64,000 bases of DNA from an uncultured cyanobacterium. GTDB taxonomy: Bacteria; Cyanobacteriota; Cyanobacteriia; Cyanobacteriales; Microcystaceae. The notes below the pieces were generated by a model. That model had not been told where the DNA came from. It saw only the letters and a program-made list of their open reading frames with translations, and searched no databases. The stretch lies in contig CAWEDJ010000098.1 of assembly GCA_963807635.1 (NCBI GenBank), forward strand, positions 1 to 64,000. The letters are read 5' to 3'. Shown here in pieces: positions 1,639-55,901 of the stretch. Every line of letters starts with the position of its first letter. Positions within the stretch are counted from its first letter, which is position 1. Position numbers and translations under genes: made by a program.

Positions 1639-1713
1639 AAACGCGATCTTCTAGCTTATCAACTCTATGGCCTCACTGAAGCAGAAATTGTTATCATCGA
1701 GAACTTCCAATAA
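1639..1713 (+). repeat. Copy 1 of a decayed type IIG (Eco57I-like) R-M C-terminal tail
   Basis: Translates KRDLLAYQLYGLTEAEIVIIENFQ*. 55/69 nt identical to 2338-2406 by manual alignment. Confidence 0.7.
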
Positions 1714-1729
1714 AGTAAAATATTCAAGT

Positions 1730-1990
1730 ATGCCTGAAATTAGCCGTTTTTTTGGAATCATTATTACGATTAACTACAATGATCATAATCCTCCTCATTT
1801 TCATGTTCGCTATAGTAATCAAAAAGCCCTGATAAGTATTGAAAATCTCAATATTATGGAAGGGAAATTAACCCCTAGAGTGCTTGGATTAGTGATTGAG
1901 TGAGCCACCTTAAATCGAACACAATTACGAACTAACTGGGAACTTGCGAAACAACAACAACCTTTACAAAAAATTTTACCCTTAGAATAA
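1730..1990 (+). pseudogene. DUF4160-family putative toxin with in-frame TGA at 1901-1903
   Basis: MPEISRFFGIIITINYNDHNPPHFHVRY...LVIE*ATLNRTQLRTNWELAKQQQPLQKILPLE*. The TGA sits where the family normally has Trp (VIEWA). Confidence 0.8.
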
Positions 1991-1992
1991 TC

Positions 1993-2280
1993 ATGCTAAA
2001 AGACATTATTGCTGTTAAAGCTCTCGACAATTATCAACTTTATTTACGCTTTGAAGATAATCAAGAAGGCATTATTAATATTCAACAACAAATTGAATTT
2101 AATGGCGTATTTGAACCCCTTAGAAATCCTGAATATTTTGCTCAAGTGGTCGTTAATTCTGAACTTGGAACCATTCAATGGCCAAACGGAGCCGATCTTG
2201 ATCCTGATGTATTATACAGTTTGATTACTGCTCAACCTCTTCCTCAATTCTCTAGTAATACTAATACTTATTTTGTTTAA
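1993..2280 (+). CDS. DUF2442-family putative antitoxin
   Basis: 'YQLYLRFED...GTIQWPNGADLDPDVLY' motif. Starts 2 nt after the DUF4160 gene. Confidence 0.85.
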   Translation: MLKDIIAVKALDNYQLYLRFEDNQEGIINIQQQIEFNGVFEPLRNPEYFAQVVVNSELGTIQWPNGADLDPDVLYSLITAQPLPQFSSNTNTYFV

Positions 2281-2406
2281 ATAAAACTCAGCAATAGTGA
2301 TCATAATATAGACAAAACTACTTTGGAAAAAGAAAACGATCGCCTAATTTATAAACTGTACGGCCTCACTAAAGAAGAAATTGCTATCATCGAAAGCTCC
2401 CAATAG
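2281..2406 (+). repeat. Copy 2 of a decayed type IIG R-M C-terminal tail
   Basis: Translates IKLSNSDHNIDKTTLEKENDRLIYKLYGLTKEEIAIIESSQ* with no start codon. Confidence 0.7.
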
Positions 2407-2457
2407 TCTAAATTTATAGACAATTCAACTATAAATAACCTCTTAAAACTATGACAA

Positions 2458-3573
<1,116 letters not shown>

Positions 3574-3667
3574 TTAGGTATTGAATCAATAGGGTGATTT
3601 CTTAAAAAAATATTTTAGACAGCCCAATTCCTAGACCGTCTAAAACATCTAGATGGATAAGCCAATC

Positions 3668-5763
3668 TTAGTCAACAGAAGGCTTTTCAGAGGTAGGCAG
3701 ATCCCAATTATCAAAGGAGATCGTATCATCCCCAAATAAGTCTTCCAATCCCTCAGTACTCGCTTTCGGCGTTTGGCTCTCTACCGAATCAAATAGCTCA
3801 TTGATGTCGGATGGAGCAGAATCATCGGGAGTAAATAAATCTCCGAATAAATCATCGGATTCGCTCGATCCTAAGCGACTGAGATTATCATCATCAGTTT
3901 TGAGCATTTCTAAAAACTCAAGATCGGATTTTTCAGCTTCCGAGTCAAAAAAATTGATGAAAGGAAGATTCTCTTCACCTGCCAGAGTTTCGGGCATATT
4001 GGCTAAATCTTCAGTTTCTGGCGGAAACATATCCAAAAGCTGGAGATCATCTTTTAGGGTCTCTTCCCCCAAAAAATCAGGTAAAGCGGGATCTTCCGTG
4101 TCCATAAAGGAAGAAAGCTCTTCAGATTCATCTAAGGATGGTTCCTCTGTTTGCAACATAGAGAGAAAGTCTAGTTCAGAGTCCGTAGAGGTCTCTGACA
4201 GAGCATCTTCATTTTCAAAGGAAGGCAATACTGCTTCTGCGGATGAATCAAAACCTTCGCTCAAATCAAAAGAGGTATCAGGTAAATCAAAAGAAGTATC
4301 AGGGGTTTCAACCGTTTCCTCTAGGGACTGAATCGGTTCTTCTAATAGTTGGGGGGCTCGGGCTCTGTCCAACTGGCTAATTCAGTTTCGCCCAAAAGAG
4401 CGTCTTCTAACGGGGTATCAGCCCAATTTTCTTCGGAAGTTTCTTCGGGGATTTCCAAGGAAGATTCGGCAACGAGTTCTTCGGTAATTTCTTCAGAAAC
4501 AGGTGCGGGTTCGGCATTTGTCCAACTGGATAAATCAGCTCCATCCAGAAGATCTTCTCCCAAGGAAGCATCAGCCCAATTTTCGTCGAGAGTTTCTTCG
4601 GGGATTTCAAAGGGAGATTCGGCAACGAGTTCTTCGGTGATTTCTTCAGAAACAGGCGCGGGTTCGTCATTTGTCCAACTGGATAAATCAGCTCCATCCA
4701 GCAGATCTTCTCCCAAAGAAGCATCGGCCCAATTTTCTTCGGGAGTTTCTTCAGGGATTTCAAAAGGGGATTCGGATTCTTCGCTGACTTCTTCAACGGC
4801 GGGGGCGGTTTCTGTCCAGCCCATCATTTCAGATTCGATCGCAACTTCTTCTGCTAGGGGTTGATCGGCCCAATTGTCTTCAGGAGTTTCATCGGGTATT
4901 TCAAAGGGAGATTCGGCAACTAGTTCTTCAGTAATTTCTTCAGAAACTGGTGCGGGTTCTGTCCAACCCATGAGTTCAGATTCTGTCGCAACTTCTTCTG
5001 CTAGGGGTTGATCGGCCCAATTTTCTGTGGGTGTTTCTTCACTGACTTCAAAGGGAGATTCGGCAACGCTTTCTTCACTGATTTCTTCTATAACGGGGGG
5101 TTCTTCTACAACGGGAGTTTCTTCGTCTTCTCGATTAAGAAAATTAGAGGTTGCCCAGCCCGCTAAACCTGCGGCCCCTGCGATCGCGGCGGCTCCCATT
5201 GCGGCTCCTGGCCAACCACTGGATTCAGTTGTTTCGGGAGGAGTCGGAGAGGAAGTATCAAACCCTTGAACGGGAGGAGTTTGTTGAAGTTCTTCTAGGG
5301 TTTGTTGATGGGATTGTTGTAATTCTCGGATTTGAGCTTGGTAGGATTGCTCGATCGCCTGTTTTTCGTTGTGATGATTGGCTTGCAATTCCTGAATTTG
5401 AGCTTGATAGGATTGCTCAATTTGTCTAATGCGGTCTTGAGAATCGGCGAGGGCGGCAGGATTACCCTGAAGTTTTTCGACTTCTTGTAATTGCAATTCA
5501 TAGGACTCCTCTAAATTACGGAGTTGACCCTGATAGGAAGCCTCGACGGATTGGAGTTGTTGGCGAGCATTTTGGAGTTCTTGGGTGTGGATGGACTGTT
5601 GCGATCGCAGAGATTCAGTGTCTTCAAGGGCCCGATTCGCCCGTTCTAGTTTTTTTTCTGAGCTTTCAAGTTTACGCTGGATCTGCTGTAATTTATTTTG
5701 AAAAAAGAAATAAGCAATCGCACCGCCGATTAATAGACCAATTAGTCCGAATATAAATGGCAT
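3668..5763 (-). CDS. Membrane-anchored coiled-coil protein with long acidic repeat tail; split by one frameshift near 4350
   Basis: N-terminal TM helix, Gln/Glu coiled coil, acidic repeats. ORFs 4342-5763 and 3668-4372 overlap at a G6 run and share composition. Confidence 0.7.
4375..5075 (-). repeat. Intragenic tandem repeats of about 150 bp (~50 aa)
   Basis: ccaactggataaatcagctccatccag recurs 153 bp apart (4522, 4675). Protein unit 'EEITEELVAESPFEIPEET..ENWAD..L.E......WT' occurs about 5 times. Confidence 0.9.
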
Positions 5764-47090: not shown

Positions 47091-47501
47091 AAGAAAAACC
47101 TAAACCTAGTTTGATGAATTCGTCTCCCGATGACTATACCAACAATGGGAAGCATCTGAAGACAAAACTGCGATGACTAAACTGATTTCAGATTATTCCA
47201 GATTTTTCTATCATAGTCTAGCCATCGAAGGAATAGATGCCAACTAGCATCGGAAATCGACTTGACTCTTTAATGACAAGTGAAGGACTTCCTTGTGTTT
47301 ATTGCGGAAGTGAGTATTGCTTTTTTGATGTAATAGCGATATTGTAAATTACCACAAATCACACTAAATTTTTTGCGTTCTTTAAGTGGTTACCTTAAAT
47401 AATTGCTTCGTCTTATTGCGCCAAGTTTTCAGATACTGATCGTAAAAAACAAATTTAGATGTCATGATTTGAAATGCATTTGCTGGAGAATCCAAATCAT
47501 C

Positions 47502-48392
47502 ATGAAAAATAATCTTAGAATCATCCACCATTTAGCCAAATCAGGAGGGACGATCATTTCTCGTTGTTTGGGCTGTATGCAAGACATCATCCTATTGAGT
47601 GAGGTTCATCCTATCGATAATGAACGACTAAGGATTATCACCCATCCCATAGAGCAGGCTTATTTTTGGTTTAATCTTTTAACAACAGAAGAACTTATGG
47701 CAATTAATGAAGTTGGTTTTATTAGTTTTCTTGATTCTATTAAATTACTTTATCAAAAAATAGAAGAATGTAATCAAACGTTAGTTTTAAGAGATTGGAA
47801 TCATCTAGATTTTATCGGTAATCCTTTTATCCAACCAAACTATCAATTAACGACTAATGAATATCTACAACATGATTTTAATTTATTAGAAATTTCAACA
47901 GTAAGGCATCCGATTGATCAATGGTTGAGTATGCGAAAACAAGAGTCTTGGAAGGAGATGGACATCGAGAGCTATTTATTTGGGTATCTTCAATTTATTA
48001 AAGCTTGTGGTTCTATGCCATTTTTTCGTTATGAAGATTTTGCTCAGAATCCTCAATTTACGATGCAATTAATCTGTCAAGCATTAAATTTAAACTATGA
48101 TGAACATTTTATTGACAATTGGCTCTCTCATCAAACTATAACAGGAGCTATTCATCCTGAAGATACAAGAAAAGAAATTGTTTATCAGACTTACTCCTAT
48201 TCTCCTGAGCTTATCGAAGCTTTTCAACAATATGACAATTATTTTGAAATTATCAGCTTGTTAGGATATCAAGATACTATAAAATCTCACACAATCTCAC
48301 ACAATCTCACACAATCTCACACAATCTCACACAATCTCACAATAGTTGAAGAAACAAGAAATAAGAGATTTGTTCAATCTAAACTAAGATAA
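47502..48392 (+). CDS. Sulfotransferase-like protein
   Basis: 5'-PSB-like 'HHLAKSGGT', 3'-PB-like 'VRHPIDQWLS', 'RYEDF'. AT-rich. Confidence 0.75.
   Translation: MKNNLRIIHHLAKSGGTIISRCLGCMQDIILLSEVHPIDNERLRIITHPIEQAYFWFNLLTTEELMAINEVGFISFLDSIKLLYQKIEECNQTLVLRDWNHLDFIGNPFIQPNYQLTTNEYLQHDFNLLEISTVRHPIDQWLSMRKQESWKEMDIESYLFGYLQFIKACGSMPFFRYEDFAQNPQFTMQLICQALNLNYDEHFIDNWLSHQTITGAIHPEDTRKEIVYQTYSYSPELIEAFQQYDNYFEIISLLGYQDTIKSHTISHNLTQSHTISHNLTIVEETRNKRFVQSKLR
48283..48340 (+). repeat. 10-bp tandem repeat (AATCTCACAC) x ~5.8
   Basis: Directly visible, inside the 3' end of the sulfotransferase-like ORF. Confidence 0.95.
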
Positions 48393-48537: not shown

Positions 48538-48873
48538 ATGTCTTATTCTTTTGACGTTTTAGGAATTACCCCTATTTTTACTTTTTTCAATTATCAGCAG
48601 GAAGTTGAACAAAATCCCCGACGTAATACTGCTTATTTGGGAAGTTACCATTGTTCCTTAGAAGGCTTTATTCAAGCGACCGAGTTGATTCCCCAAAAAC
48701 CTGATTGGGACTGGGACGATGTCGTGAAGCAGATTATCGATTTTTGGCTGGGTCATGAGGAAAATATTCAGCAATGGAAAAGGGAACTAACCACCATCGG
48801 GCAAGAGAGTTTGATTGTGGCGAGAGTTGCCAATATTGATGGATTGAGAAAAGATTTTGAAGTCCTGCTATAA
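48538..48873 (+). CDS. Conserved cyanobacterial hypothetical protein
   Basis: 111-aa ORF with AGGA RBS, 'FFNYQQ', 'AYLGSY', 'WDWD...IIDFWL'. Confidence 0.75.
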   Translation: MSYSFDVLGITPIFTFFNYQQEVEQNPRRNTAYLGSYHCSLEGFIQATELIPQKPDWDWDDVVKQIIDFWLGHEENIQQWKRELTTIGQESLIVARVANIDGLRKDFEVLL

Positions 48874-48934
48874 AAGCTAGACCTTAAATTTGGTAAGATG
48901 CCCTAGATGCCTTAATTTGACGCGATCGCTGTTT
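48871..48934 (+). repeat. glyS-upstream direct repeat, copy 1
   Basis: taaaagctagaccttaaatttggtaagatgccctagatgccttaatttgacgcgatcgctgttt. 4 mismatches + 1 indel versus copy 3. Confidence 0.95.
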
Positions 48935-48973
48935 AGGACTGAGTATATCTAATTCAATCGCGATCGCTTCTGA

Positions 48974-49240
48974 TTATTCATAATGTGTCCACATTCGTAA
49001 AATTTTGATTTTATGTTCCGACTCGATAACCTCATAAACTAGACGATGTTGAATATTAATTCGTCGAGAATAGGCTCCCTCTAAATCACCGATTAATTTT
49101 TCGTAGGGAGGTGGATTTTGAAAAGGGTTTATTTCGATTAGATCAAGAATTTTTTGCGCTTTTTCTCTAAGGTTACTCGCATTGAGTTTTTTGGCATCTT
49201 TTTGGGCTTGTTTGGTATAAATCAATCGCCATCTGACCAT
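48974..49240 (-). CDS. yoeB: Txe/YoeB-family toxin
   Basis: 'NPFQNPPPYEKLIGDLEGAYSRRINIQHRLVY', 'RMWTHYE'. Confidence 0.92.
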   Translation of the reverse strand: MVRWRLIYTKQAQKDAKKLNASNLREKAQKILDLIEINPFQNPPPYEKLIGDLEGAYSRRINIQHRLVYEVIESEHKIKILRMWTHYE

Positions 49241-49470
49241 TCTAATTCCTCATCACAATCTTCAATAGAAGTGTTTAAACCTTCTTGAATAGATTCTCGC
49301 ATTTCTGGAATAGAAAGCAAATATAGGGTTTCTTGTATTGATCTCCAATCCATTTCCGATAACAAAACGGCATTGTTATTTTGACCTGAAATGATAATAG
49401 CTTGATGGGATTGATTGACAGAATCAATTAAATTAGGTAATTGTTGTTGAGCTTCATTAACAGTAATCAT
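49222..49470 (-). CDS. yefM: Phd/YefM-family antitoxin
   Basis: 'NAVLLSEMDWRSIQETLYLLSIPEMRESI'. Overlaps the toxin start. Confidence 0.92.
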   Translation of the reverse strand: MITVNEAQQQLPNLIDSVNQSHQAIIISGQNNNAVLLSEMDWRSIQETLYLLSIPEMRESIQEGLNTSIEDCDEELEWSDGD

Positions 49471-49621
49471 GATTTTTATATTTCTTTGTTTATGGTCACT
49501 AATTTCAATAATTTGATGGATTGATATTTTATAGTTCTGCCAGCCAAGGCTTCACAAATATTCCACACCGATTATAAACATCGTAGAACTAATCTTCGGT
49601 AATGCGAATCATAATTCTAAA

Positions 49622-49684
49622 TAAAAGCTAGACCCAAATTTGCTAAAGTGCCTTAGATACCTTAATTTGACGCGATCGCCGTTT
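49622..49684 (+). repeat. glyS-upstream direct repeat, copy 2
   Basis: taaaagctagacccaaatttgctaaagtgccttagataccttaatttgacgcgatcgccgttt. 58/63 identical to copy 3. Confidence 0.95.
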
Positions 49685-49799
49685 TCGTGGTTTACGTCCA
49701 TGAAAGACACTTTTTTGAGGTGAATTAACACGATTATCTCTGAATTAACTCTAGTGGCTATAATCTATATAGAACAGTGATAGGGGAGAGGTAATCATC

Positions 49800-50072
49800 G
49801 TGGGAATCCGTCAACCCCTTTATAGCAAAGAAGAATTTGCCCAACGTGGCGATCGTATTTACCAAACTCAAATACGCCCTCAGGTCGAAACAGGTAATCG
49901 GGGCAAAATTGTGGCCATTGACCTGGAAACTGGAGATTTTGAAATTGATGCGCGTGAAATAGCGGCTTGCGATCGACTCGAAGCCCGTCATCCAGACGCT
50001 CAGATTTGGATTGTTCGCGTTGGTTCTCGCTATGTTCGTCGATTTGGTGGACGAGCTAAGGGATCTGTATGA
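49800..50072 (+). CDS. Small hypothetical protein (DUF5678-like), coupled to the protease gene
   Basis: 'GKIVAIDLETGDFEI', 'HPDAQIWIVRVG'. GAGG RBS, ATGA overlap with the next gene. Confidence 0.7.
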   Translation: MGIRQPLYSKEEFAQRGDRIYQTQIRPQVETGNRGKIVAIDLETGDFEIDAREIAACDRLEARHPDAQIWIVRVGSRYVRRFGGRAKGSV

Positions 50073-50464
50073 TCCAGGGAATCGTTAATGCTGATTTTGA
50101 ACCGATTATTTCGCTTTTTATCTGTCACTCTGATGGAAAAGTCCATCAGTATCAGGCAATTATAGATAATCAGGCAATTATAAATACAGGTTTTAATGGT
50201 TGGCTCTCTTTGCCGCCAGAGTTGATCGCTTTCCTCAATCTGAAATGGAAAAGACGAGGACGCGCTATTCTTGGTGATGGTAGTGAATGCGTTTTTAATG
50301 TTTACGAAGCGATTGTAGTTTGGGACGGAGATTATCTCACTATTCCAATTGATGAAGCTGATTCAGAACCTCTAGTAGGAATGTCATTAATGGAAGGCTA
50401 TCAACTTGTGGTTCAAGTGATGGAGGAAAGTGGTGTAGAAATCCGCAGAATAAAAGTGGTCTAA
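50069..50464 (+). CDS. Clan AA (retropepsin-like) aspartic protease family protein
   Basis: 'II(D/N)TGFNGWLSLP', 'LGDGS', 'PLVGMSL'. Confidence 0.82.
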   Translation: MIQGIVNADFEPIISLFICHSDGKVHQYQAIIDNQAIINTGFNGWLSLPPELIAFLNLKWKRRGRAILGDGSECVFNVYEAIVVWDGDYLTIPIDEADSEPLVGMSLMEGYQLVVQVMEESGVEIRRIKVV

Positions 50465-50470
50465 TTTCAC

Positions 50471-50533
50471 TAAAAGCTAGACCTGAATTTGGTAAAATGC
50501 CCTAGATACCTTAATTTGACGCGATCGCCGTTT
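50471..50533 (+). repeat. glyS-upstream direct repeat, copy 3 (likely the glyS promoter region)
   Basis: taaaagctagacctgaatttggtaaaatgccctagataccttaatttgacgcgatcgccgttt. Contains a TGn-TAAAAT extended -10 and ends 11 nt before the glyS ATG. Confidence 0.95.
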
Positions 50534-50544
50534 GGGACTTGTGT

Positions 50545-52685
50545 ATGGCTAACTTGACTTTTTTATTGGAAATCGGTACAGAAGAACTACCCGCAGATTT
50601 TGTGGCCAACGCGATCGCCCAATGGCAGAGTCGAATCCCAAAAAGTTTGACCGACAATTTATTAACGCCCGAATCGGTTCAGGTGTACGGTACGCCCCGC
50701 CGTTTAGCCGTATTAATTCAAGGTTTACCGAGTCAGCAACCCGACCGCGAAGAAGCCATCAAAGGCGCCGCCGCCGCCGCTTTTAAAAATGGTGAACCGA
50801 CCAACGCCGCGATCGGGTTTGCCAAAAAACAGGGTGTGGAAGTGAGTGCATTAACAATTGAAGCGACGGATAAGGGAGATTTTGTTTTTGTCCAGAAAAA
50901 AACGCCTGGTCGTCCCGCTCAGGAAATTTTAGCTGAATTAGTCCTGAATTGGCTCAATAATCTGGAAGGTAAACGGTTTATGCGCTGGGGGGATGGCGAT
51001 TTGCGTTTTCCTCGTCCCATTCGTTGGTTAGTCGCTCTGCTGGATCAGGAAATTTTGCCCCTGCAATTAGTTAATGGTTCCACAACCCTCAATAGCGATC
51101 GCCTTTCCTGGGACATCGGGTTTTACATCCTGAAATAATCAGCATTAAACAGGCAAAAGATTATCAAGAAAATTTGCGATCGGCCTACGTTATTGTTGAT
51201 CCCGAAGAACGTCGTCAAATTATTACGGAACAAGTTAAAAATGCAGCCAAATCCTTAGAAGGAACTGCTGAAATTTATCCTGATTTACTCTCAGAAGTTG
51301 TTAATTTAGTTGAGTATCCCACTGCTGTCATTGGAAAATTTGATACGGATTTTCTCAAGTTACCTACAGAAGTAATTACCATTGTTATGGTGACGCACCA
51401 GCGTTATTTTCCTGTTAAAAAAGCTGATGGAAATTTATTTGCAAACTTTATTACTATTGCTAACGGTGATCCTAAAAAAGCAGAACTCATTGCTGAGGGA
51501 AATGCGAGGGTGATTCGCGCCCGTTTAGCCGATGCCCAATTCTTTTATCAAGCTGATTGTGATCAATCCTTAGAAAGTTATTTACCCCAACTTGAAACAG
51601 TGACTTTCCAAGAAGAATTAGGAACCATGCGAGATAAGGTTGATCGCATTATAGAAGTTGCTCAACAAATTGCAGAACAACTCAATTTAGATGAAAAAAA
51701 TTGCCAAGAAATTGAAAGTACGGCAATGTTATGCAAGGCGGATTTAGTCACCCAAATGGTCTATGAATTTCCTGAATTGCAGGGCATTATGGGACAAAAA
51801 TATGCCCTAGTAAGTGGTGAATCAAAAGCGGTTGCAGATGGAATTTTTGAACATTACTTACCCCGTAATATTGAGGATGATTTACCTGAATCTTTAACGG
51901 GTCAAGTCGTGGGAATCAGCGATCGCCTAGATACCTTAGTTAGTATTTTTGGACTGGGATTATTACCCACAGGTTCCTCCGATCCTTTTGCCCTCAGACG
52001 TGCCGCTAATGCCATTGTGAATATTACCTGGTCTGCTAACTTAGGGATTAATTTACATGAACTATTAACCCAAATTTCAGCCGATTTTCTGACCGCTCAT
52101 AGTGGTAAAAACTCTCCCTTAGAACTTCTCAAAAATTTCTTTATTCAACGTATTAAAACTCTATTAGAAGATGAATTAAAGATTGATTACGATTTAGTTA
52201 ATGCCGTTCTGGGAGATAATGATCCAGACTATACAACTCGCGCCTTAGAAAATTTACTCGATGTCCGCGATCGCGCTCAGTTTTTACAACAAATTCGCCG
52301 TAACGGTCAACTCGAACGTATCTATGAAACCATTAATCGCTCTACTCGTTTGGCAAGCAAAGGCAATCTCGATCTCCAAGCATTAAATCCCCAATCCGTC
52401 ATTAACCCCGATTTATTTGTGAAGTCTTCTGAAAAAGCTTTTTATGATGCTCTCATTGCCCTAGTCCCGATTACGGAAAAAGCCCAGAGCGATCGCAATT
52501 ATCAGTATCTTGTTGAAGGTCTAGGGAAAATTGCCCCGATGGTTGCCTGCTTTTTTGATGGGGAAGATAGCGTCATGGTAATGGATGAAAATCTAGAAAT
52601 TCGTGCCAATCGTCTTAATTTACTAGGATTACTGCGAAATCACTCACGGATCTTAGCCGATTTTGGTGCGATCGTTAAAGATTAA
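50545..52685 (+). CDS. glyS: Glycine--tRNA ligase beta subunit (frameshift near 51110)
   Basis: '[11 protein letters not shown]', 'TPRRL', 'MRWG...RPIRW', 'HQRYF', 'EFPELQG', 'SDPFALRR'. Confidence 0.95.
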
Positions 52686-54735: not shown

Positions 54736-54899
54736 TCTTTTTTGATTAGATGTTAAATAATTCCCCTGATCTTTCAAAGGTTGGGGGATTTTTAATCGCG
54801 ATCGCTTTTTAGGTTCTGATATTTTTATCCCAGTCTAAAAAATTTGATTAACCGTAAGATTTGAGTCTGAAAAAATTGTGGAAATAACGCGATCACGTA

Positions 54900-55810
54900 G
54901 AGCGTGTCATCAATTAACACACTTGACATTAGTGAATAATTATGCTGTTTAAACTGGGCTACGCTAACCATATAACTGATGCGGCCAGATAGATGCCGCC
55001 TAGAAAATTGGCTGAGCGCTTGTCGTAACGAGTCGCAAGCGCACGATATTGTTTGAGTTTCGCAAAGAAGTTTTCGACTAAATGACGCGCTTTATACAAA
55101 AATGTATCATAAGGGCGAGGTTCTTTTCGATTACTTTTCGAGGGTATCACAGGCACTATCCCTCTTTTTCTAGAACCTTAATGACTCTATCGTCTGCGTC
55201 ATAGGCTTTGTCCCCTAGCACCGCTTCTGCTTCTACATCAGGCAATAGCACATCGGCTCCGTCTAAATCACACGCTTGACCTGGCGTTAGGAAAAAAGAG
55301 ACTGGATTCCCTAATGCGTCCACTACGGCATGGATTTTCGTACTTAATCCTCCTGTACTCCTTCCTATATCTTCTTCCTCTGCGCTACTGTTTTTTGCTC
55401 CTGCACTGTGTTGATGCGCTCTCACAATCGTTGCATCTATCATTGCGTATTCATTATCAGCGTCCTCCGCTAAGTGCTTGAATACCTTTTCCCACACCCC
55501 TGATTTCGTCCATCGCGTAAAACGCGTGTGAATCACTCGAAAATCTCCAAACCTTTCGGGTAAGTCTCTCCAAGGAATGCCCGCTCTATATCGATATAAT
55601 ACGGCTTCAACAAACAAACGATTATCTTTAGCTGTTACTCCCACATCTCCCTCTTTTCCAGGTAATAGATCTTTGATTCTTTCCCATTGGTCATCCCGCA
55701 ACGCATAACGCCTCGTCATATTCACATCTCTCTTCAACATATATTTTGTCATTTCATACTCTGCGCATTATTTGCCACTAATGTCAACCCCCCTAATTGA
55801 TGACACGCCC
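54900..55810 (-). mobile_element. IS5-family element
   Basis: Inverted repeats gagcgtgtcatcaatta...ttgacattagtg versus reverse complement gggcgtgtcatcaatta...ttgacattagtg. TA on both flanks (54898-99, 55811-12). Confidence 0.92.
54959..55752 (-). CDS. IS5-family transposase (frame break near 55158)
   Basis: 'GIPWRDLPERFG', 'IDAT', 'TKIHA', 'DKAYD', 'YKARHLVENFFAKLKQYR..ATRYDK'. Confidence 0.9.
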
Positions 55811-55901
55811 TAAGAAAACGATAAATTCCTTACCCATCGGTCATAAACCTTCTACAATAGGGAGGGTTTGAAAAAAAAGCTTAACCAATCACGAAAACTC
55901 T

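Follow-up and report, generated by a model that had tools for sequence, protein, structure and literature searches.

Genes without mobility functions that lie between direct repeats of more than 30 bp, with the repeat matching a single-copy empty site, have been described for restriction-modification (RM) systems as insertions with long target duplication (Furuta et al., 2010, PMC2853133; Nobusato, 2000, as cited there), and the cases presented in the available part of PMC2853133 come mostly from naturally competent species and include one from Microcystis, of 88 bp. The array described here, located upstream of glyS (glycyl-tRNA synthetase beta) in 64,000 nucleotides of DNA from an uncultured cyanobacterium of the Microcystaceae (contig CAWEDJ010000098.1 of assembly GCA_963807635.1, positions 1 to 64,000; hereafter the window), is a variant of this type of insertion as that text describes it. 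Repeats of 63-83 bp enclose inserts of 0.69 and 0.79 kb, that is, direct repeats longer than 30 bp surround inserts shorter than 20 kb, and its genome has about 50 such sites, this array among them, where small toxin-antitoxin (TA)-type modules are enclosed by two diverged copies of a host gene end or promoter 30-330 bp long. The joins cluster on the highly iterated palindrome HIP1 (GCGATCGC) and split it near its centre. Taken alone, the glyS array is an ordinary member of this genome-wide class; what makes it of interest is its HIP1 junctions, not glyS.

Several features set the array apart from the RM insertions as presented in PMC2853133. The cargo there is RM, whereas here it consists of TA-type modules, YefM-YoeB and a second pair that is putatively of this type; here about 50 loci are found in one genome, with tandem accretion; the edges here cluster on and split HIP1, which is not mentioned in the available text of that paper; and the trigger proposed there, DNA breakage by the RM system itself, cannot apply. 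Immunity arrays of the type VI secretion system (T6SS) in Vibrio, attributed to homology-facilitated illegitimate recombination and likened to integrons in the accessible part of PMC5361080, resemble the array in their stepwise addition without an integrase beside a conserved anchor and in the displacement of older parts. In the Vibrio arrays, however, the displaced parts are immunity genes, whereas here they are host promoters or gene ends, and here the illegitimate join prefers HIP1. Junctions at HIP1 are also known from smtB excision, plasmid recombination in PCC 7002 and SDR5 insertion (PMC4390886, PMC13756078, in the portions available); PMC4390886 summarises SDR5 insertion as occurring between bases 3 and 4 of HIP1, near the break point of the half sites reported below. 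Those cases concern deletions, laboratory plasmids and a 21-nt repeat, whereas the present junctions belong to natural gene-carrying insertions with long target duplications. After three decades HIP1 is still described as being without an agreed function (PMC5861425, PMC13756078, same restriction). A literature search covering titles and abstract openings, with closed journals outside its coverage, did not find TA modules with long target duplications ending at HIP1. Integrons and clusters of attC sites without an integrase hold an ordered array of small TA-rich modules between similar sequences, as does the glyS array, which differs in having no integrase and no attC hairpin, in carrying modules in both orientations and in using host sequence as the repeat.

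Direct repeats and HIP1 at 50 loci

The genome of the window's contig (G000, in which this contig is C98) comprises 4.03 Mb, is 93.7% complete and contains 4,738 HIP1 sites. It was compared with itself for low-copy repeats of 30-330 bp that are at least 78% identical and 0.4-5 kb apart, pairs with both copies inside long open reading frames (ORFs) being excluded. This self-comparison revealed 63 direct repeat pairs at 50 loci and no inverted pair. The repeats at these loci measure 33-316 bp, differ in sequence and, by inspection, have only HIP1 in common. The original prediction, made from the sequence of the window, had seen a special array in front of one essential gene, a view that is not supported because the same anatomy recurs at 50 loci. 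In a hand-picked set of 20 of them, Pfam detected a named TA family between the repeats at 12 and none at 4; the further 4 contain DUF pairs or nucleotidyltransferases, which we take to be TA-like. A genome-wide scan for TA pairs flanked by duplicated gene ends had been suggested as a check: homology searches identified 24 TA paralogue modules, the focal one included, and 8 of the 21 testable ones were flanked by repeats, compared with 3 of 242 control ORFs. Exact empty alleles with a single copy were present in same-genus genomes (G001-G005) at two of the five other loci first compared, namely tadA (in G004) and C39 (in G003), and locus C31 had no match in the five relatives. At C43, C103, C45 and C105 of G000, at least three copies and at least two modules each are found, so that these are more arrays like the one at glyS.

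An exact HIP1 at most 12 nt from a repeat edge occurs at 28 of the 50 loci, whereas the main control, matched segments at ORF ends drawn 1,000 times, gave 6.1 +/- 2.3 loci with a maximum of 14. The enrichment was also seen at longer repeats (14/32 against 2.8 for those of at least 60 bp; also 9/24 against 2.1). At 13 of 126 edges, the whole palindrome is present in one copy and only its inner part, nearly always (G)ATCGC, in the other, where chance would give 0.9-2.7 such half sites and none of 19 interior HIP1 sites had this appearance. Since two of the loci concerned represent one element and one copy is common to two edges, about 10 of the edges are independent, and by our own estimate the decay of full HIP1 sites would add about two half sites. 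Extension of BLAST alignments onto a shared HIP1 is unable to produce half sites.

The array upstream of glyS

The features of the array, and a second example in the window, are given below with positions in the window.

48538..48873, plus strand: conserved cyanobacterial hypothetical gene (111 aa), left neighbour here and in G004 only
48871..48952, plus strand: repeat copy 1 (spare), glyS upstream region with HIP1, then about 19 nt from a glyS start that belongs to another allele type; -10-like hexamer now TAAGAT
48960..48967, no strand: second HIP1, left end of cassette 1 and branch point from which relatives go on into yoeB (G000, G004) or Uma2 (G003)
48974..49240, minus strand: yoeB/Txe toxin gene, with an internal stop in G004
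49222..49470, minus strand: yefM/Phd antitoxin gene
49528..49621, plus strand: segment A, which precedes the glyS-proximal copy in G001, G004 and L074
49622..49684, plus strand: repeat copy 2 (spare), ending 5 nt past HIP1; hexamer now TAAAGT
49800..50072, plus strand: hypothetical gene (90 aa) of cyanobacterial clusters without Pfam family
50069..50464, plus strand: gene resembling clan AA aspartic proteases; in this genome a tandem duplication of 18 nt interrupts its DTG motif
50471..50533, plus strand: repeat copy 3, glyS-proximal, retaining HIP1 and TG-n-TAAAAT (likely glyS promoter)
50545..52685, plus strand: glyS, two ORFs in this assembly
1644..2405, plus strand: second example, a 69-bp direct repeat (1644-1712 / 2337-2405) that starts at a HIP1-like site, consists of copies of a gene end and brackets a DUF4160-DUF2442 pair

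The three copies predicted at 48871-48934, 49622-49684 and 50471-50533 were confirmed, with pairwise identities of 88-89% and BLAST E values of 1e-15 to 1e-21. Only these three were found in G000 at E<1e-2, so that the repeat is confined to the glyS locus and, as the original prediction implied, is not a dispersed element; a dispersed repeat family was rejected on this ground. The repeat corresponds to about 65 bp upstream of glyS. The beginning of copy 1 coincides with the stop codon of ORF 48538-48873, and copy 3 stops 11 nt short of the glyS ATG; the alignment of copies 1 and 3 extends to 48952/50552, about 8 nt beyond the ATG at 50545, and that of copies 2 and 3 extends leftward to 49612/50462. 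Each copy contains a HIP1 near its 3' end and a second HIP1 follows copy 1 at 48960, neither of which had been noticed earlier. TG-n-TAAAAT is retained in 8/8 glyS-proximal copies and altered in 3/9 spare copies, for which reason it is likely to be the glyS promoter, although a sigma-70 consensus scan called no plus-strand site within the repeat. Copy 2 with segment A was likely once the region upstream of glyS, because segment A precedes the proximal copy in G001, G004 and L074.

The minus-strand yefM-yoeB module proposed for interval 1 was verified (yoeB, TIGR02116, above cut-off; yefM, PF02604). For interval 2, the proposed hypothetical gene and aspartic protease correspond to a 90-aa ORF without family and a clan AA protease-like gene, but the latter stays below the family cut-off (TIGR03698, 50.9 against 57.35 bits) and its motif is broken in G000, where the 18-nt duplication changes IIDTGF (G004) to IIDNQAIINTGF. 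An Atlas lookup of the 90-aa protein returned no family, and an Rfam search gave no match. The statement that neither integrase nor transposase lies at the array also stands: the inserts contain no mobility genes, the window's contig contains no tyrosine recombinase, and the closest multicopy element resembling an insertion sequence (IS) begins at 54898, 4.3 kb from the array. This IS-like transposase element (54898-55814) has 48-bp imperfect terminal inverted repeats.

Alleles of the glyS site in relatives

The glyS locus was compared in eight records, namely G000, the five same-genus genomes and two metagenome contigs (L074 and L075), the latter being the two close loci out of 80 from a protein scan; a pattern scan of metagenomes with the repeat sequence found nothing. 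A single-copy site with other left neighbours lies upstream of glyS in G002, where the order is glyA-wecA-glyS, and in G005, where the copy follows a 5-kb insert between wecA and glyS (L036:4513-9268) with MotA-like, OmpA-like and EH-signature-like genes, presumably Zorya-like. G001 has three copies around a different TA-like pair and then yoeB-yefM, L074 has two around nested TA remnants, and L075 has one visible copy whose left flank is like that of G001's distal copy, only 114 bp upstream being covered. G004 contains the window's array at 94% identity and in the same order over 2,120 bp, with a third copy that enters the end of a second yoeB and with glyS on another contig, and G003 has one copy at glyS and another elsewhere before a Uma2 gene. 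Because relatives hold other cassettes between the copies, or one copy only, the glyS site gains different modules in different lineages. Thus the proposal that small cassettes are added between copies of host sequence agrees with the different modules in G001, G004 and L074, with the single-copy alleles of G002 and G005 and with the lack of integrase and attC; its restriction to glyS does not stand.

One-copy and different-cassette alleles had been expected in relatives and were found, but the empty allele with the window's left neighbour (hypothetical gene, repeat, glyS) was present in none of the five. The 111-aa gene precedes ppk in G003 and ppk-like sequence in G002; in G002 and G005 it lies on a contig other than that of glyS, and in G001 this query did not detect it. 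It is not the usual glyS neighbour, and the earlier view of the repeat as the native spacer between the two is not supported. The same applies to the tail of copy 1, which had been read as a decayed image of G000's own glyS start: it is one base shorter than that start and represents another allele type, the same tail with the same junction being found in G004 (twice) and G003. Copy 3 of G004 begins like the proximal copy of G000 and continues with a foreign-type glyS start, HIP1 and the end of the second yoeB, an arrangement that implies crossing over within the repeat. In G001 and L074 the distal copy breaks off within HIP1 after GCGAT (half site), and the middle copy of G001 ends exactly at HIP1.

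When 69 glyS loci were examined for upstream duplications, 7 had a match and only L074 and L082 show this anatomy; the matches of L124, L125 and L129 were rejected as tandem gene paralogues and those of L114 and L135 were taken as dispersed repeats. In L082, from an unrelated cyanobacterium, an Eco47II-like restriction gene and a C5 methylase gene (2088-4988) lie between 140-bp copies of the glyS upstream region, an RM case of insertion with long target duplication. Two further observations concern this site. In G001 (L032), the last ~400 nt of glyS are only ~67-69% identical to close relatives, compared with 84-97% for the rest, suggesting a replaced gene end. A ~206-bp element with short terminal inverted repeats adjoins cassette ends at two loci, upstream of glyS in G004 (L033, G004:C20) and at G000:C32:9825-10030.

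Origin of the inserts and alternative explanations

The established observations to be explained are the anatomy, the allele variation among relatives, the exclusively direct orientation, the clustering on HIP1 and the split-palindrome junctions. With a probability of roughly 0.55, they arise when DNA taken up from relatives is held by homology at one end while its other end is joined at HIP1 or close to it, the resident end being left as a spare copy. At glyS, the donor fragment would consist of a cassette, its own promoter copy and glyS and would be anchored through glyS homology; its far end would be joined just past the resident promoter, usually at HIP1, and the resident promoter would be pushed upstream as the spare copy. 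A cassette that has acquired copies on either side could use the short left one as a second arm, so that the same unit might be added again at the glyS-proximal copy in a different lineage, irrespective of the sequence upstream. Loss of cassettes through repeat-mediated deletion may be slowed by TA addiction. Uptake may occur by natural transformation, with a nick or cut at HIP1; comEC and dprA are intact in G000 and, according to the available text of 10.1101/2024.09.10.611283, HIP1 in homology arms raises integration in PCC 7002, both of which we count in favour. A more far-reaching version, which we put forward tentatively and consider possible rather than probable, is that HIP1 is the working end-joining site of a host-encoded cyanobacterial gene-acquisition route, in which DNA is nicked or cut at the palindrome centre and the end is joined while the neighbouring host gene gives homology. 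If true, any gene end or promoter near HIP1 could turn into a cassette array that grows without an integrase and can be carried from one species to another. Natural junctions that cluster on HIP1 and split it near its centre give the palindrome a direct role in gene gain that can be tested. The pattern would also account for the gathering of many TA modules by bloom-type cyanobacteria in which integrons play no part, and one-arm integration suggests itself as a route for engineering.

In order to polarise the copies, relatives were used as outgroup at nine loci, C44, C100 and C7 being excluded on account of paralogues or unclear orthology. Among 98 differing sites, 33 had both letters in working genes of relatives, 45 were confined to the spare copy and 18 to the one attached to the gene. 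Measured against the closest relative, the gene-attached copy is more distant than the spare one at tsaD (10 vs 6 of 89) and at C37 (16 vs 12 of 145), and at C37 it is closer to G003. A donor origin of the gene-attached copy is suggested by these comparisons, not established.

Several results weigh against the anchoring of donor DNA with a join at HIP1. The gene-attached copy is nearer to G004 at 6/9 loci, with a near tie at carB (7 vs 6), and looks foreign at 2/9 only; at three of these six (ABC, trx and ppsA) the second copy is also present in G004, and the insertion is therefore older than the split. Copy differences at 27 loci fall mainly on third codon positions (158 vs 84 and 66), an excess that is partly expected after local duplication too, so that this test cannot separate the models. 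Sliding identity along glyS made no donor tract visible, and the join between cassette 2 and glyS has no independent spanning contig. No exact HIP1 lies at an edge in 22/50 loci, the within-repeat control was weaker (11/26 against 6.2, control maximum 11), and several half-site cases have the intact site on the cassette side, which a simple model does not predict. In 400-kb samples of three other cyanobacteria (G018, G024 and G028), 3, 3 and 0 pairs were found, one with HIP1 at its edge, samples too small to judge the generality of HIP1. Finally, action in trans is possible for the six tyrosine recombinase matches that G000 has at other places.

The last point bears on the strongest alternative, which we regard as unlikely: a nuclease or recombinase of the host or of a mobile element would act in trans at HIP1 (or CGATCG), and the cassettes would be circles that integrate by single crossover into a copied host segment. 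Half-site junctions keep (G)ATCGC, the bond of SDR5 insertion according to the portion of PMC4390886 available, which also cites HIP1 site-specific recombination in PCC 7002, and Xer-like recombinases are present in G000. Against such an enzyme speak the lack of a recombinase at the locus and the repeats, which vary in sequence and length and by inspection share only HIP1. Excised circles had been predicted, but neither a back-joint nor a circle joint was seen in four runs (X1-X4), which are contigs of relatives, of strains other than this one. An integrative element or cis-mobilizable element (CIME) at a gene end is not supported, as there is no constant att core among the 50 loci and no tyrosine recombinase on this contig; action in trans is possible.

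More doubtful still are local duplications within one genome, by break repair or transposon-driven rearrangement, with cassettes drawn from the same chromosome and HIP1 no more than a frequent site of microhomology or nicking. Rearrangements are heavy in the genus, an inverted-repeat element lies beside G004's glyS copy, and the differences confined to the spare copy (45/98) would fit. However, the same cassette units and junctions recur across three species although their neighbours differ, G000 contains no paralogue of the 90-aa/protease pair, and the gene-attached copy looks foreign at C37 and tsaD.

Very improbable, and largely refuted as a system specific to glyS, is the reading that the original prediction had favoured, in which an integron-like array or a decayed integrative element serves the glyS promoter alone and uses the repeat as att site. 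The left edge is nearly common to all copies, the modules are ordered and variable, and an unrelated cyanobacterium (L082) has the glyS upstream duplication around an RM system; yet the left edge fades into weak similarity in G002, G005 and L074, and the same anatomy with other sequences exists at 49 more loci. An integron was rejected, the best integron-integrase score being 51 bits against a cut-off of 265 (TIGR02249; 0/6 genomes above it) and no attC-like fold being found: copies 2 and 3 fold no better than shuffles (z +0.2 to +1.5), and copy 1 owes its fold solely to its two HIP1 sites (z -1.6/-2.2), values that compare folds with shuffles and do not represent an attC covariance model.

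An assembly artefact, for which indel errors and the lack of a contig across the whole array might speak, is refuted for everything but the final join between cassette 2 and glyS, as G004 has the same order (2,120 bp, 94% identity), the copies differ by 11-12%, and run contigs span the first junction and cassette 2. Indel errors are likely in the assembly, because an additional G stands at 51109 in related runs; glyS and a number of further genes appear as split ORFs. To the left of the array, an ORF for a 329-aa sulfotransferase-like protein (47403-48392), missing at this place in G004, has a 10-bp tandem repeat near its end.

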